Shown: one piece after another, positions 1 through 5,460 of the stretch
Layout: each line of letters opens with the position of its first letter
Numbering within the stretch: the stretch's first letter is position 1
Made by a program: the position numbers and the translations under genes
The notes under the pieces: generated by a model
The model's database searches: none
Seen by the model: the letters and a program-made list of their open reading frames with translations, nothing else
What the model was told of the DNA's origin: nothing
From: a virus
Taxonomy: Duplodnaviria; Heunggongvirae; Uroviricota; Caudoviricetes
DNA: 5,460 bases
Strand: one strand, 5' to 3'
IMG/VR virus record: IMGVR_UViG_2531839662_000010
Span: 1 to 5,460 of that record

Positions 1-600
1 TCTTTACCACTTTCTGTGTTGATTGGTTATGAAAAGAACGCTCGCACACACTCCGTGGAGCAGGTAGATCAGATTGTTGCCAGCATACAGGAGTACGGAT
101 GGACTAATCCGATCCTGATAGACGAGAACAACGTTGTAATTGCTGGTCATGGTCGAATTGCTGCGGCCACTCAGTTGGGGATGGATGACGTTCCCTGCAT
201 TGTTCTGGAAGGGCTAACGGAGAATCAGAAGAAGGCATATCGTCTGGCCGACAACCGTATTCCGCTGAATGCTGGTTGGGATGAAGAGTTGTTAAGCGCG
301 GAACTTGCAGATCTTGCGGCCGATGATTTTGCTCTGGACTCAATTGGTTTTACTCAGCGCGAACTGGATAACTTATTGAGTGCGGCGGTCTACGATGACA
401 CAGAGGGTATGGATATCCCATTTGAGAAGGATGAGGCCAAATCAGGCGTAAAAGTTCAGTACCTGTCATTTGGAGGTCATAAAATCCCGGCAACGGATGA
501 GGAAGCGGATCGTTTTGACTGCGCGGTGTCTCGTTATGTTGATGATAATGGCAGCTATATCGGATTTGTATCCGCATTGCTGGCTGGGGAGGTGTGCTGA
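1..600 (+). CDS. ParB/Srx-fold (ParB N-terminal domain) nuclease-like protein, 5'-partial; frame is open to window start, true start probably just upstream
   Basis: ORF 16..600 has no stop upstream in frame and no SD before GTG16/TTG19. Translation shows ParB-N hallmarks: NARTHS near the N-terminus, GHGR box (nt 145-156), then LADNRIPLNAGWDEELLSAELADL, a pattern typical of phage ParB-like nuclease proteins. Stop TGA 598-600. Confidence 0.75.
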   Translation, partial: SLPLSVLIGYEKNARTHSVEQVDQIVASIQEYGWTNPILIDENNVVIAGHGRIAAATQLGMDDVPCIVLEGLTENQKKAYRLADNRIPLNAGWDEELLSAELADLAADDFALDSIGFTQRELDNLLSAAVYDDTEGMDIPFEKDEAKSGVKVQYLSFGGHKIPATDEEADRFDCAVSRYVDDNGSYIGFVSALLAGEVC

Positions 601-1973
601 TGCTTCACCTGAATTACGACATAACGCACCTACGCGGCGCGGAATATAACCCGCGTTTTATCGGTGAGGATGATCTTGCGAGGCTGGCGGAAAGCGTCAG
701 GGAGCTGGGGCTTGTGAAGCCATTGATAGTGCGCGGCGATTTGCTGGTGGCGGGACACCAAAGGACGAAGGCGCTACGTAAGTTGGGAATAACGCGTGCT
801 GCGGTGTATGTGTTGCCCTGTGAAACGACGGTATACGACGAAGTACGGTTTAACCAACTGCATAACGGAACGGATTTTGATAGCGGAGATGAGCGTTGCA
901 GGGTGTCCGGTCTGGAAGATAAGCATGGTTTTGTTCAGGTATCGGCAAGCCAGATCTCAGGCAATATGCGCGCGAAAATGGCATATGTTCGAAAGAACAT
1001 AGCGGAACTGGTTATCAAGTATGGTCCGTGGGGTGGTTGTGTTGCTACTCAGTCTGGTGAGGTTATTCATTGTGCTCAGTATGCATTAGCAGCGAAGATG
1101 ACGCGCACACCGCTAACGGTGTTTGTGATCCCTGATGTTGAGAAGGAAAAATACCAAAGTTATCTGAATAAAACTTATGGTGTATTTGAGTATTCTCATC
1201 TGGAGAAAACAACATACATCCAGACGTATGCGCAGCTTATGCGGTTGCGTAATGGTGGCAGCCTGAAATCAAATCTGTATGAGTCGTTGATCCTCCCGAT
1301 CATTGCCAAGACGCCAAGAGGAATTGATTTTGGTTCGGGGCAGGGAGACTACGCGCGAATGCTCAGGGCAAAGGGATATAACCTGCATGATCTCGAGCTT
1401 TTCCGCCGTAAGGGCGCTGGAAACACTCTGGATAGGACCGCAACAAACCGGATGATTGATACGCTGGTGGATGACTTAAAAACGCGAGGGCGTTACGACT
1501 ACGTGATTTGCGATAGCGTTTTGAACTCGGTCGATAGTGTCGAGGCTGAATGGTCCGTTCTGACGGTTCTGAAAGGCCTGTGTAAAGCTGGTGGGTCAAT
1601 ATTCTTTTCTGGTCGTAGCCGTGGAGAGCTGGAAACAGTCCTGAAGCAAACACAGGCGGCGAGTTCCAAAAGCCGGCTTTATTTTATTGATCATAACGGT
1701 TTTACCGCGTTGTACCGGAAGGGGCACTGGTTTTACCAGAAGTTTCACTCTGATGAGGAAGTGAAGCAGTTGTGTCGTGTACATGGTTTCAGGATTAAGC
1801 GGTCAATATTCAACTGTAAGAGCTGGTATTTGCACGTCATTAACGATGATTCCCTTAGTTGGGCGAGTCTGGAGAAAGCTGTTCGTTTTGAGTTTGAGTT
1901 GCCGTTGCCTGGTGGTTCAACAATCGGACGATCTGATGATGTGCTGGCGGCTTTCCGGCCGTTGATTAAGTAG
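600..1973 (+). CDS. Fusion protein: N-terminal ParB/Srx-like domain + C-terminal Class I SAM-dependent methyltransferase-like domain
   Basis: ATG at 600 overlaps the upstream TGA (TGATG) with GGAGG at 588-592; the track's GTG 594 has no usable SD spacing. N-terminus YNPRF...VAGHQRTKALRKLG is ParB-like. C-terminal half has Rossmann MTase motif I IDFGSGQGD (nt 1323-1349), motif II YDYVICDSVLN (nt 1494-1526) and motif III-like LKGLCKAGGSIFF. No (D/N/S)PP(Y/F/W) motif seen. Confidence 0.7.
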   Translation: MLHLNYDITHLRGAEYNPRFIGEDDLARLAESVRELGLVKPLIVRGDLLVAGHQRTKALRKLGITRAAVYVLPCETTVYDEVRFNQLHNGTDFDSGDERCRVSGLEDKHGFVQVSASQISGNMRAKMAYVRKNIAELVIKYGPWGGCVATQSGEVIHCAQYALAAKMTRTPLTVFVIPDVEKEKYQSYLNKTYGVFEYSHLEKTTYIQTYAQLMRLRNGGSLKSNLYESLILPIIAKTPRGIDFGSGQGDYARMLRAKGYNLHDLELFRRKGAGNTLDRTATNRMIDTLVDDLKTRGRYDYVICDSVLNSVDSVEAEWSVLTVLKGLCKAGGSIFFSGRSRGELETVLKQTQAASSKSRLYFIDHNGFTALYRKGHWFYQKFHSDEEVKQLCRVHGFRIKRSIFNCKSWYLHVINDDSLSWASLEKAVRFEFELPLPGGSTIGRSDDVLAAFRPLIK

Positions 1974-1989
1974 TCTGTAGGAGGCGCTG

Positions 1990-2328
1990 GTGGCTGACAG
2001 AATTGAGATAAAGATGGATTTTTCTTCTCAGGATATTCAACGACAACTCCAGCGCCTTGAAGAACGCGAATTGCCGTTCGCAATGGCGCTTGCGGCAACC
2101 AGAACGGCAAAGGCTTCTCAGGCTGCGATTAAGAATGAAATTAATCGGGTATTTGACAGGCCCACGCCGTGGATTCAGAACTCTACTTACGTTTTGGCCG
2201 CAAAGAAGAGTGATCCTACAGCCATTGTGTATGCTCGTGAATGGGGAGGAACGCCAGCCCCTGTAACGTTGACTCCGCAAATCGAAGGTGGCCAACGACA
2301 GTACAAACGCTCAGAAGGTGCGTTGTAA
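1990..2328 (+). CDS. Hypothetical protein (112 aa), third gene of the ParB operon; weak, unverified resemblance to small phage morphogenesis proteins
   Basis: GTG start at 1990 preceded by AGGAGG (1979-1984, 5-nt spacer), 16 nt after the upstream stop. Helical Ala/Gln/Arg-rich N-terminus. Stop TAA 2326-2328 sits inside the left arm of a perfect hairpin. Confidence 0.5.
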   Translation: MADRIEIKMDFSSQDIQRQLQRLEERELPFAMALAATRTAKASQAAIKNEINRVFDRPTPWIQNSTYVLAAKKSDPTAIVYAREWGGTPAPVTLTPQIEGGQRQYKRSEGAL

Positions 2329-2380
2329 AACCCACTGAATTCAATGTTTTCCCTTTGTTTTCAGTGGGTTTTGTTATTGG
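2327..2380. terminator. Putative bidirectional intrinsic terminator: perfect 13-bp inverted repeat with 20-nt loop
   Basis: AAAACCCACTGAA (2327-2339) and its exact reverse complement TTCAGTGGGTTTT (2360-2372), followed by T-rich GTTATT. On the opposite strand the stem is also followed by a U-run. Lies between convergent genes. Confidence 0.45.
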
Positions 2381-2411
2381 TGGGGGTTACTGATTACCCT
2401 ATAAAACCCAC

Positions 2412-3403
2412 TTATGTGGATGAAATGTGGATGCCTCCTTTTAACGGATTAAGTGAAATTGCATCCTGGAGGAAATCAGGAGCGAGGTGTGCATAGGTCA
2501 TAGTTTGCTGGATCGTGGCGTGCCCCATAATTCGCTGGAGCGTAAGTATATTTCCTCCATTAATCATAAAGTGAGCTGCAAAGGTATGGCGTAGAACATG
2601 TACTGCCTGCCCTTTTGGTAGATCAGGCTTAACACTGCGAAGCACCTTGCGATATTCCTCATAATTGACGTCAAACAGAAGGCCGGATTTCTTTGTTTTG
2701 ATCTCGCTAACAACTTCATCAGAGACAGGAATAATTCGAACTTTTCCGTTTTTAGTTTTGTTAAACGTCACGCGGTTATTGATGATGTGTTCCGCGCGCA
2801 GATTTTTCGCTTCTCCCCATCTCGCACCAGTACTGAGACAAAGTAGCGTAATCCGCCGGGCATCACCGCTTACTGCATCCAGTAATTTGGCAATTTCTTC
2901 CGTGGTGAGATACGTCATTTCGGGTGATTTTCGTTTCAAAGAGGGGAGGGCGCGGAGCGGATTTTCTCCGTGAAATTCCCCGGCATTTGCCAGGAGTGTA
3001 AACATTCCTCCGAGATCCGACTCATCACGCCGAACAGTAGACTCTTTTACTCCCAAAGATTAAACGGGAGCTTCGATTAAGCGGCCATGAAACGAGCATT
3101 AATCTGGCTAACCCTTGGATCATTCATTTCTTTGATGATTTTTTTCAACCTGGTTAGAACGCCGTTAGCATATGGCTTATTGCGTCCACCCAATTCCCAC
3201 CATAACGGAAGCAGATCTGAGAGATGACGTTGCTCTGTTGGCTTTTCAAGCCATTCCTTATCGTGCATGTGGCTGAGAACATAACGCTCAAAGGCCACTG
3301 CATCTGCCTTTTTCTTAAAAATCCGCTGAATCCGACGTCCACTTCGGCCACGCGGTCTAACATCCACTTTATACCGTCCACCATCGAGTGCTTTAATTGC
3401 CAT
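2412..3403 (-). pseudogene. int: P2-type tyrosine integrase, apparently inactivated (N- and C-terminal halves in different frames, separated by stop codons)
   Basis: N-terminal part (ORF 3077..3436; probable start ATG 3401-3403 with GGAGGG SD, giving MAIKALDGGRYKVD) resembles the P2 Int N-terminus. C-terminal part (2412..3056, starting at a TTG) carries the catalytic motifs ARWGEA, HVLRHTFA and the tyrosine in MTYAHL. Frame 1 stops at 3077-3079 and frame 2 has a stop at 3060-3062; no single indel joins them. Confidence 0.6.
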
Positions 3404-3469
3404 TGGCAAGCCCTCCGGTGAAACGAGGAAAGACATTTCCAGTTTGTAAAACGTAAGAATAATAAAGGG

Positions 3470-3772
3470 TTAACCAATTTTCCTTTCGGATGGGGGTAAA
3501 TCCGTTGGTTCTTGCCCATAGTGTGCGAGAGCCGGAGCTATCTGCCCGGATTCAGGCGCAATTTTTCCAGTCATAAACCACAACGCATATTTCTCAAATC
3601 TGGGGTTGTTTAGTATTTGCTCAATTACTTCAGCATTAGGGATAGTTTTACCGCTTTCATATCTCCACAGAGCATCACGGTTTAAACCAAGCATTTTTGC
3701 TGTATCCGGGAGGCTAGTAAGTCTCTCGCTTTCACGCATGATTTTTATGCGCTCTCCAATAGTCATACGCAT
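3470..3772 (-). CDS. C: P2 C-type immunity repressor
   Basis: About 100 aa from ATG 3770-3772 with GGAG SD (the track starts at a TTG 15 nt further upstream). Contains WFMTGKIAPESGQIAPALAHYGQ, which closely matches the C-terminal half of phage P2 repressor C as recalled. Sits upstream of int on the same strand and divergent from cox. Confidence 0.8.
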   Translation of the reverse strand: MRMTIGERIKIMRESERLTSLPDTAKMLGLNRDALWRYESGKTIPNAEVIEQILNNPRFEKYALWFMTGKIAPESGQIAPALAHYGQEPTDLPPSERKIG

Positions 3773-3867
3773 GTTGCAATTCTCCAACGTCTGTATTAAT
3801 GTTTATACAAATGAGTTTGATTTGGGGCATCCGTCGCAAGAAATACCCCAAACAGGGAGATTATCAC
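3773..3867. promoter_or_regulatory. Divergent promoter/operator region of the immunity switch (Pc leftward, Pe rightward)
   Basis: 95-bp AT-rich spacer between divergent C and cox starts. Contains a 7-bp inverted repeat TTTGGGG (3821-3827) / CCCCAAA (3846-3852) and TATTAAT / TTTATAC -10-like hexamers. Exact -35/-10 boxes could not be assigned by eye. Confidence 0.45.
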
Positions 3868-4194
3868 ATGAATGAAGAACTATTGAGGGCATTGTTTAAG
3901 ATCCCAGACCCCATCACCGTTGATGAGTTTTCCCGCCGCACAGGTAAGACCGAATCAGCCGTAAGAAAGTTGGTAGAGCGTCGACTCATCCCTCTAACTA
4001 CTGAGCGCGAGGTTTTAGGCGAGGAAGGGAGTTCGCGCCGTCTTCTCATCCTTTGGAATGAGTGGCTCGAAATGGTCTATGACGCAACGAGACAGCTTCC
4101 TCCTGAGCGTAAAGATTGGCGCAACCACTGGCTTAAGAAAGCCAAGAAGCTGGCGGAAGATTTGGGATTAGGCTTTCTTAATTTTGCTGCATGA
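3868..4194 (+). CDS. cox: Cox-like excisionase/transcriptional regulator (108 aa)
   Basis: ATG 3868 with GGAG SD (3855-3858). First gene rightward of the repressor, divergent from it. GKTESAVRKLVERRLIPL resembles the P2 Cox DNA-binding region as recalled. The track's upstream start at 3799 would overlap the operator region and was not used. Confidence 0.6.
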   Translation: MNEELLRALFKIPDPITVDEFSRRTGKTESAVRKLVERRLIPLTTEREVLGEEGSSRRLLILWNEWLEMVYDATRQLPPERKDWRNHWLKKAKKLAEDLGLGFLNFAA

Positions 4195-4212
4195 GATGCA
4201 GGGAGTTTTGAT

Positions 4213-4554
4213 ATGAAACAGCAACGTAATTCACGCTTTCGTAATGGTGCTGAACGCCACGCTAACCGTTTCGCTACCAGTGCATCACGCAGCAACATCC
4301 GCTACAGCCTGAGCGAAACACACGCAACGCCGGATGGCTACCCAGTAAAACAAATCGGCGAGCACGCCTGGTTGATTGAGAAAGCTGGAATCGTGGTCCA
4401 CAAATGCCCACACAATCCGTTTACCGGAAACCGCATTTTTGCACTAAGCAGCGGCGACAATCAGTTCGGACAGGATTTCACATTGTACGAAGCACTTCGT
4501 ACAGTTGATCGTCTGCTTCGCGGACAAAGTTTTATTAAACAGGCTGATTTATAA
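4213..4554 (+). CDS. Hypothetical early-operon protein (113 aa) with strongly basic N-terminus
   Basis: ATG 4213 with GGGAG SD (4200-4204), 18 nt after the cox stop. N-terminal 30 residues are Arg/Asn/Ser-rich. Function not recognised. Confidence 0.5.
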   Translation: MKQQRNSRFRNGAERHANRFATSASRSNIRYSLSETHATPDGYPVKQIGEHAWLIEKAGIVVHKCPHNPFTGNRIFALSSGDNQFGQDFTLYEALRTVDRLLRGQSFIKQADL

Positions 4555-4564
4555 CAGGTGCTTT

Positions 4565-4843
4565 ATGACCAAAGAGCATGCACAAGGTGTATTTATCCGT
4601 TTTATTGATTTTCGCGGTGAACTGTTATTACGCGCATCGGCTATTGATGCTGTAGTTCCGGCAGAAAAAGATGTGGCCACTTACCTTTATCTGAACGGCA
4701 CGCGATTGTTTGTGGAACTTCCGTACCAGACCGTACGCGAAATCATTAACGAAGCTGAAAAGGCACGTCAGGTTAATGGCGATGAACCATATATCGAAAT
4801 TATCTGCATGGATTCAGAAGCTGAAATTCAGAAAGCAGATTAA
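4565..4843 (+). CDS. Hypothetical early-operon protein (92 aa)
   Basis: ATG 4565 is 10 nt after the previous stop, with AGGTG upstream. The track's longer version from 4505 would overlap the preceding gene by 50 nt, so the downstream start is preferred. Acidic C-terminus. Confidence 0.5.
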   Translation: MTKEHAQGVFIRFIDFRGELLLRASAIDAVVPAEKDVATYLYLNGTRLFVELPYQTVREIINEAEKARQVNGDEPYIEIICMDSEAEIQKAD

Positions 4844-4854
4844 AGGGCGTTGCG

Positions 4855-5097
4855 ATGGGCAAAGAATATAAAACTCTCATTAACAAAGCACTTGAGCGTT
4901 TTTATTTTCGCTTAAGTGCATCAGGCGTTCATGCTGAACGTGCAGCCCGTGACTCATTGACCAGGGCAATCCGGAGTCTGTATGACGTGGCTTTTTACGC
5001 TGATGATCTGGATGCACTTAACGAACTTTCCGAGCTGATCTGTGCCGCAGAATGCGGGGAACATATTGAACCGTATAAGCTGGGGAATATCGCATGA
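4855..5097 (+). CDS. Hypothetical early-operon protein (80 aa)
   Basis: ATG 4855 is 11 nt after the previous stop, with AAGGG upstream. Predicted helical. Function not recognised. Confidence 0.45.
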   Translation: MGKEYKTLINKALERFYFRLSASGVHAERAARDSLTRAIRSLYDVAFYADDLDALNELSELICAAECGEHIEPYKLGNIA

Positions 5098-5207
5098 GTA
5101 TATTTATCTCATGGCTTGTTCTGATTATTTCGGTGGCCTGTGCCATTGGGATTATGCGAATTATTAATTCAGTAAAAAAGATTGAACGCTTTTTTACTGG
5201 TGAATAA
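5094..5207 (+). CDS. Small hydrophobic peptide (37 aa) with one predicted transmembrane helix; not in the supplied ORF track
   Basis: ATG 5094 overlaps the upstream TGA as ATGA. Translation MSIFISWLVLIISVACAIGIMRIINSVKKIERFFTGE: a roughly 19-residue hydrophobic core followed by a basic tail. Stop TAA 5205-5207. Confidence 0.35.
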   Translation: MSIFISWLVLIISVACAIGIMRIINSVKKIERFFTGE

Positions 5208-5300
5208 CGATACAAATAAAACATCAAATTAAATAAGAAAACGTGAAAACCATCCGTATTAACGGAGGTATTCGCACACGCAAATAACGGAGATACAAAA

Positions 5301-5460
5301 ATGCACGCAAAAGAAGAAGGTATCATCAGAGCACTGAAAGAAATTTCAAAGATGGAAAGCGAAGTAGCGAAAAAAGCCGTGGCCAATGCTCACATGGACG
5401 TCGCAATCCACACAATGATAGCCGCAAAAGTCACGGCAGAAGCTGCCAAAATCATCGAAG
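5301..5460 (+). CDS. Hypothetical protein, 3'-partial (runs off window end), Ala/Lys-rich helical N-terminus
   Basis: ATG 5301 with GGAGA SD (5289-5293, 7-nt spacer) after a 93-bp AT-rich spacer. Open to the window end: MHAKEEGIIRALKEISKMESEVAKKAVANAHMDVAIHTMIAAKVTAEAAKIIE. Confidence 0.5.
   Translation, partial: MHAKEEGIIRALKEISKMESEVAKKAVANAHMDVAIHTMIAAKVTAEAAKIIE

Follow-up and report, generated by a model that had tools for sequence, protein, structure and literature searches.

A conserved 37-residue membrane protein gene in the early operon of P88-like prophages

Small genes placed right after the genes of the lysis-lysogeny switch are known from the P2-like early operon of phage 186, where fil and dhr, both non-essential and overlapping each other, are followed by a hairpin, the terminator tR1, by further accessory genes and by gene A. 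Overexpression of fil blocks cell division, and dhr inhibits host replication. Short accessory peptides are also encoded in the early polycistronic operon of phage lambda, namely CIII and Kil, whose targets are FtsH and FtsZ, respectively. The Hok/Gef toxins, found on plasmids and prophages, are in turn small hydrophobic peptides of the inner membrane. Finally, bacteria have small single-pass membrane proteins such as YohP, DinQ, AcrZ and MgrB, which are shorter than 50 aa, amount to little more than a single membrane helix and carry no enzymatic domain. Some of these small proteins bind larger membrane proteins, and others depolarise the membrane when abundant.

The gene addressed here encodes a peptide of 37 aa and lies in a stretch of viral DNA of 5,460 nt (positions 1 to 5,460 of IMG/VR record IMGVR_UViG_2531839662_000010), referred to below as the window. 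Like fil and dhr, it is a small gene located right after the switch genes of a P2-like early operon. Unlike Fil (75 aa) and Dhr (66 aa), which have no N-terminal membrane helix, its product is predicted to begin with one; BLASTP returns no alignment between the peptide and Fil at E <= 100, Dhr is soluble and its sequence is unrelated, and the hairpin that follows the peptide gene lacks the plus-strand T-run of tR1. The peptide shares its size and architecture with YohP, DinQ, AcrZ and MgrB, but no homology to them is found in NCBIfam or Pfam, and it differs from them in being phage-encoded, in belonging to an operon and in having its start overlapped with the stop of the gene for a candidate soluble partner. 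With the Hok/Gef toxins it has in common the small size, the hydrophobicity and the inner-membrane location (predicted in its case), whereas a Pfam match to them, an overlapping leader frame, an antisense RNA and a stand-alone locus are all absent. CIII and Kil, which belong to a different phage group, are neither membrane-spanning nor homologous to it. The gene itself appears in databases as gp07 of phage P88 and as WP_000021661.1, two records of the same gene, neither of which assigns a function.

Genomic context and distribution

The right half of the window corresponds to the early region of a P88-like, P2-like prophage (Xuanwuvirus, Peduoviridae), in which the following features are located:

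4213..4843: conserved early genes preceding the DUF4754 gene, encoding a DUF4761 protein (113 aa) and a 92-aa protein (phrog_3800)
4855..5097, plus strand: DUF4754 gene, 80 aa (Pfam PF15946, E = 7e-54)
5094..5207, plus strand: coding sequence of the 37-aa small membrane protein, translation MSIFISWLVLIISVACAIGIMRIINSVKKIERFFTGE
5094..5097, plus strand: ATGA start/stop overlap between the peptide gene and the DUF4754 gene, present in 175 of 175 loci
5018..5386, minus strand: antisense ORF of 122 aa that overlaps the peptide gene; not a gene
5253..5266 (5243..5276 with flanks), no strand assigned: hairpin TCCGT-ATTA-ACGGA, in the 93-nt spacer 3' of the peptide gene
5301: start of the gene downstream of the peptide gene and the hairpin

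A segment of 661 bp that includes the peptide ORF (4800..5460) occurs with 100% identity in E. coli ETEC1717, where RefSeq gives the order integrase (minus strand), helix-turn-helix repressor (minus strand), Cox family protein, DUF4761, 92-aa hypothetical protein, DUF4754, a 114-nt CDS (WP_000021661.1), small genes and replication endonuclease. Phage P88 has the same gene order. DUF4761 accompanies DUF4754 and the peptide in all the divergent loci examined, and the gene between varies; searches of PDB sequences returned no solved relatives of either DUF4761 or the 92-aa protein. Promoter-like sites number four, against 3.2 expected by chance, and, by analogy with P2 and 186, expression of the peptide is probably early.

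The initial annotation presented the ORF as unannotated, a description that does not hold. Its exact CDS is a RefSeq entry (WP_000021661.1, 'hypothetical protein'); gp07 of P88 (YP_009113050.1, 'membrane protein') is 97% identical to it, with N25H as the sole difference, and overlaps the DUF4754 gene likewise; and UniRef lists the exact peptide sequence as 'Prophage membrane protein', on at least 1000 contigs. Annotation is inconsistent between phage records, though, and the gene is missing from NC_049344 and NC_049341. The minus-strand ORF at 5018..5386 is present as initially listed, but the suggestion that it could lead to missed annotation is unsupported: no related record annotates it (gene calls on it are absent from the ETEC1717 and P88 records and from the divergent loci examined) and it is not conserved, the stop-free length of the antisense frame ranging from 50 to 165 aa among relatives.

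Of 5426 complete E. coli genomes, 1364 (about a quarter) contain the peptide region, and O103 and O145 are among the Shiga-toxin-producing serogroups that carry it. Its close relatives are found in Shigella, E. albertii and Salmonella, according to source names, and in a Citrobacter rodentium phage, according to its phage record. This taxonomic range is drawn from source names and phage records; when representative genomes were scanned using the alignment of DUF4754, at least two loci were obtained.

Other parts of the P88 prophage carry genes related to lysis and host killing. The late region, about 15 kb away, contains holin/anti-holin gp30, endolysin gp31 and the DUF2570 protein gp32. At the far end of the prophage lies gp52 (29329..29469 of the P88 sequence, L176), a host-killing gene of the hok/gef family (MokW-like), which is a true type I toxin locus within the element that carries the peptide.

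Two further observations concern other parts of the window. The integrase gene (2412..3436, minus strand) is broken up into two ORFs that lie in different frames; relative to the intact 329-aa allele of ETEC1717, one extra base near 3058 and another near 3075 each give rise to a GATTAA, and the gene looks inactivated by frameshift, unless these are sequencing errors. Positions 1..2322 code for a ParB-like nuclease and for a 459-aa protein that has a methyltransferase-like region, and also contain the beginning of a further gene. They match the end of Yersinia phage vB_YpM_41 and that of E. coli phage vB_EcoM-613R2 at 99% identity, and the end of the P88-like prophage starts at about 2305, with the junction near 2305..2322. 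No complete E. coli genome in the collection has both parts in one place, and this unusual junction reflects either one element abutting another or an assembly chimera.

Coding evidence and initiation context

The first set of loci (82, of which 80 were retrieved with DUF4754 as query, the others being L001 and L002) contains the ATG, the ORF and the ATGA overlap in every case. Start, frame and overlap are likewise kept in all 175 related loci, the overlap context being GCATGA in 172, GTATGA in two and ACATGA in one, and the DUF4754 gene lies directly 5' of the peptide gene in every locus with enough upstream sequence. An exhaustive protein search of representatives yielded nine relatives of the peptide. 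The distant ones of 41 aa (P0065, P0066 and P0069; 54-68% identity) each come after a DUF4754-type gene of 80 aa, which they likewise overlap by 4 nt, and all of them are located between cox and gene A of P2-like prophages. The copy of phage 503458 was left out because of many indels in the peptide region.

The pattern of substitution is that of a coding sequence. Between four lineages, pS reaches 0.5-0.8 (near saturation) against a pN of 0.20-0.26, and dN/dS, where computable, ranges from 0.1 to 0.35. Differences by codon position follow the order third > first > second (23/11/6, for example, p = 0.003), p being < 0.01 in the comparisons that involve the window, and protein identity is higher in the peptide frame than in the other five frames for every lineage pair. 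Across the four lineages the peptide is 54-68% identical, against 28-45% for DUF4754, and the ATGA overlap persists even where DUF4754 has diverged to that extent. These sequence comparisons show that the 37-codon ORF, whose conservation goes far beyond chance, is a genuine gene under purifying selection. Conservation of the frame and of the overlap in related prophages thus clearly favours coding, and the initial view of a real small single-pass membrane protein of a prophage is upheld by the 175 loci and the dN/dS values.

Three short elements within or next to the coding sequence bear on its translation and its variation:

5082..5087, plus strand: Shine-Dalgarno-like purine tract GGGGAA, inside the final DUF4754 codons
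5174..5179, plus strand: A6 homopolymer, codons 27-29, at which single-base deletions in P0064, P0067 and P0068 replace the last 9 residues
5190..5195, plus strand: T6 homopolymer, codons 33-34, at which single-base deletions give 45-aa forms with an altered C-terminus

The start codon of the peptide (ATG, 5094-5096) shares bases with the stop codon of the DUF4754 gene (TGA, 5095-5097). An in-frame stop at 5076-5078 precedes it in the sequence, which makes ATG 5094 the earliest start possible. In every lineage a purine-rich, Shine-Dalgarno-like tract stands 7-12 nt 5' of the ATG, its equivalents being GAGGAG (L083), AAGGGG (L087) and GAGGTGG (L088), and the DUF4754 residues encoded across the tract differ by lineage (KLGNIA, LIEELA, LIEGET and FTEVAA). 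The ATGA overlap points to translational coupling of the peptide to the DUF4754 gene. A programmed -1 frameshift that would fuse DUF4754 and the peptide was considered and discarded, as there are only five open in-frame codons before the ATG and a slippery heptamer is absent. The longer DUF4754-peptide 'fusion' proteins present in the database are, on reading, products of a shifted frame, each apparently due to an indel artefact in a single assembly. P0017, the one natural fusion at hand, is missing parts of both DUF4754 and the peptide.

Nearly all the prophages examined keep the peptide gene intact, with no mark of decay. In some relatives, deletions at the A6 and T6 runs replace the last 4-9 residues and bring the length to 45-59 aa; these forms may be functional variants or early decay. 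The 45-aa forms due to the T-run were found in 7 of the 82 loci and comprise several distinct sequence variants, so at least some of them are inherited and are not read errors. Since frameshifted tails occur in several lineages, the extreme C-terminus of the peptide may be dispensable.

Predicted structure of the peptide and its surroundings

According to its sequence, the peptide can be divided into two parts, preceded by an N-terminus of two residues:

5100..5156, plus strand: predicted transmembrane helix IFISWLVLIISVACAIGIM, codons 3-21 (hydropathy, AlphaFold2 and conservation)
5157..5204, plus strand: amphipathic tail RIINSVKKIERFFTGE, codons 22-37, net charge +2, with conserved I23, I24, K28, I30, E31 and F34

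The mean Kyte-Doolittle value of residues 3-21 is 2.68, and their Hessa insertion energies add up to -2.9 kcal/mol. The six frames of the window contain 104 stop-free segments that reach 30 aa or more, and no 19-mer in any of them is more hydrophobic. The 37-aa ORF, its ATGA overlap and its hydrophobic 19-residue helix are therefore as first described, by sequence and hydropathy. The tail (residues 22-37) had been called lysine/arginine-rich; it does contain four K/R and has a strong amphipathic moment, but two E reduce its net charge to +2, and its basicity is moderate, not striking. AlphaFold2, run on a 5-sequence alignment, predicts one continuous helix from residue 2 to residue 34 (mean pLDDT 89.5). 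According to the positive-inside rule, the 2-residue N-terminus would be outside and the tail in the cytoplasm. For small proteins of such size, SRP-dependent, post-translational insertion is described in a study on YohP (PMC7549839). A lipoprotein or a secreted peptide was discarded, as the N-terminus (M-S) is uncharged, a lipobox is absent, the would-be -3 position of the lipobox is S, and C16 is not conserved, this position being occupied by F or M in other lineages.

Residues M1, S6, W7, L10, A17, G19, I23, I24, K28, I30, E31 and F34 are invariant. S or A occupies position 13 in all copies, and R or K occupies position 22 in nearly all, a few having Q instead. The pattern found across the family comprises a length of 37-41 aa, an N-terminal M-[SN]-[IV]-[FL]-x-S-W, A17-x-G19, [RKQ]22-I-I and K28-x-I-E. 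The periodicity of conservation, in a profile that has only about four independent lineages behind it, peaks at about 105 degrees, near the value for the 3.5-residue repeat by which helices pack together. The conserved positions (6, 10, 13, 17, 20/21, 24, 27/28, 31 and 34) form a stripe that begins at the outer end of the membrane segment, continues into the tail and carries the small residues S, A and G within the membrane. This conserved face suggests a specific packing surface, for self-association or for a partner protein, since generic membrane damage needs no such face.

The protein encoded upstream, DUF4754, is predicted by AlphaFold2 (pLDDT 88) to form a helical hairpin, with helices at 4-48 and 52-66, plus an extended tail. 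A Foldseek search of the PDB gave generic helical matches alone, none of them with E <= 0.001. The constant adjacency of both genes and their overlap suggest that DUF4754 and the peptide are co-expressed, and perhaps that they have a joint function.

One of the loci (L089, 3762..4126) is mosaic exactly at the boundary between both genes. Its DUF4754 is 84% identical to that of the window, its peptide is 100% identical to that of L088, and the DUF4754 proteins of L088 and L089 share 42% identity whereas their peptides are equal. The DUF4754 and peptide genes can thus recombine at their boundary, which argues against a tightly co-evolved complex between their products.

The hairpin located after the peptide gene is present in all 175 related loci, distant lineages included, and its flanks are also conserved (GAAAAC upstream and GGAGGTATTC downstream). 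Its closing pair shows compensatory change, being U-A in the type of the window and C-G elsewhere, and rare variants retain G-U wobbles on the plus strand, whose RNA fold has an energy of -15.8 kcal/mol (z = -4.3). A T-rich stretch follows the hairpin on the minus strand in all lineages and the plus strand has no T-run, the element being terminator-like on the minus strand only. It may act as an mRNA element, as a minus-strand terminator or as a DNA site. As the gene 3' of the hairpin differs between lineages, the hairpin constitutes a mosaic boundary that separates the conserved module from variable genes.

Proposed role and alternative explanations

From these data, it is proposed, with a probability of roughly 0.6, that the peptide is a non-structural accessory factor of the early lytic stage that engages in specific helix-helix association, encoded in the P88-like early operon. 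In this operon, whose order is cox, DUF4761, 92-aa protein, DUF4754, peptide, variable genes and replication gene A, the peptide and DUF4754 would be translated off one mRNA. Ribosomes may stop at the TGA and then restart at the overlapping ATG, or they may be recruited by the Shine-Dalgarno-like tract. The product would form a single unbroken helix, about 33 residues long, and insert in the inner membrane with its two N-terminal residues out and its net-positive tail in the cytoplasm. The face formed by S6, L10, S/A13, A17, I24, K28, E31 and F34, with G19, I23 and I30 alongside, would mediate the association with another helix, and it is the conservation of this face from the membrane segment into the tail that leads to the proposal of a specific one; the binding mechanism put forward is thus read from the sequence. 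Candidate partners are the peptide itself, DUF4754 or a host inner-membrane protein. Literature searches by DUF4754, peptide sequence and accession found no paper on the peptide or on DUF4754, and the P88 literature that was found deals with tail fibres. Families or relatives of the peptide are likewise absent from PHROGs, Pfam and NCBIfam (all three at E <= 0.1) and from PADLOC, PDB sequences and Rfam.

The main rival of this proposal is that of an autonomous membrane peptide of the kil type, which would oligomerise and depolarise the inner membrane or block division early in lytic growth, no specific partner being needed. The peptide has the build expected for it (short, very hydrophobic, single-pass and with a charged tail), the host-directed genes fil and dhr of phage 186 occupy an analogous place after the switch genes, and small E. 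coli peptides of like shape, for example YohP, DinQ and LdrA, are described as depolarising the membrane or being toxic. This explanation is nevertheless rather unlikely, as generic membrane damage requires neither the tail motif K28, I30, E31 and F34 nor a single conserved face, while the gene stays intact in nearly all prophages and resembles neither 186 Fil nor any toxin family. Overexpression of small hydrophobic peptides is often toxic, whatever their native role. A function in superinfection exclusion or anti-phage defence, by blocking the entry of DNA of other phages at the inner membrane, is improbable. Known exclusion proteins are often small inner-membrane proteins and P2-like prophages harbour many defence genes, but the peptide belongs to the conserved module and not to the variable region that starts after the hairpin, PADLOC gives no match, promoter-like sites barely depart from the chance expectation, and the early lytic operon 3' of cox would be repressed in lysogens, judging from P2 and 186 (annotated 186 pR).

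The initial annotation also evoked holin-like and type I toxin-like peptides, and both possibilities are now disfavoured. A holin or antiholin that times lysis could well have one transmembrane helix and a charged C-terminal tail, as the peptide does; it is, however, very unlikely to be encoded here, in an early operon between cox and gene A, with no adjacent endolysin and no match to holin families in Pfam or PHROGs, when P88 has its gp30-gp32 cassette in the late region. Equally hard to sustain is a type I toxin restrained by an antisense RNA. Its size (under about 60 aa) and hydrophobicity would fit, and a hairpin with a T-rich stretch on the minus strand is found 46 nt downstream, but this minus-strand terminator-like site would end a transcript before the ORF, with no overlap with the gene, and any antisense promoter would have to lie in a gene that changes from one lineage to another. 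Besides, the ORF is internal to a polycistronic operon, its start being overlapped by the upstream stop, no separate promoter for it stands out from chance, it has no match to Rfam or to toxin families, and the real hok/gef gene of P88 is elsewhere. Least credible of all is a chance ORF, or a non-coding stretch kept open by constraint on the other strand or on the mRNA. The ORF is short, it has no match among families, structures or literature, and the antisense frame r1 is also stop-free over the 111 nt compared; yet frame, start and overlap are kept in 175 of 175 loci, changes are conservative and concentrated in third positions, pN is far below pS, and identity is highest in the peptide frame in every lineage pair, whereas the antisense ORF varies between 50 and 165 aa.

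For the most part, the result is a clean confirmation of a short ORF as a real gene, unsurprising to a specialist: the peptide is one more small membrane protein of a phage early operon, uncharacterised and ordinary in kind, though real. Small membrane proteins are under-studied, and this one is very widespread, with no family or literature; being common and cleanly supported, it makes a reasonable subject for work on small proteins. The proposal of an accessory factor with specific helix-helix association admits a bolder extension, held only tentatively, in which DUF4754 and the peptide constitute a two-gene early module and the conserved face of the peptide binds and modulates a single, specific protein of the host inner membrane (a protease, a sensor kinase, a transporter or a division protein, for instance), the peptide possibly recruiting the soluble helical hairpin of DUF4754 to the membrane. 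The hairpin after the gene could, separately, represent a new regulatory boundary of the early operon. If a host membrane protein is targeted, the peptide would be a compact and genetically tractable phage effector, and such a module, if true, would represent a new mechanism of host takeover by phages, present in about a quarter of the complete E. coli genomes.
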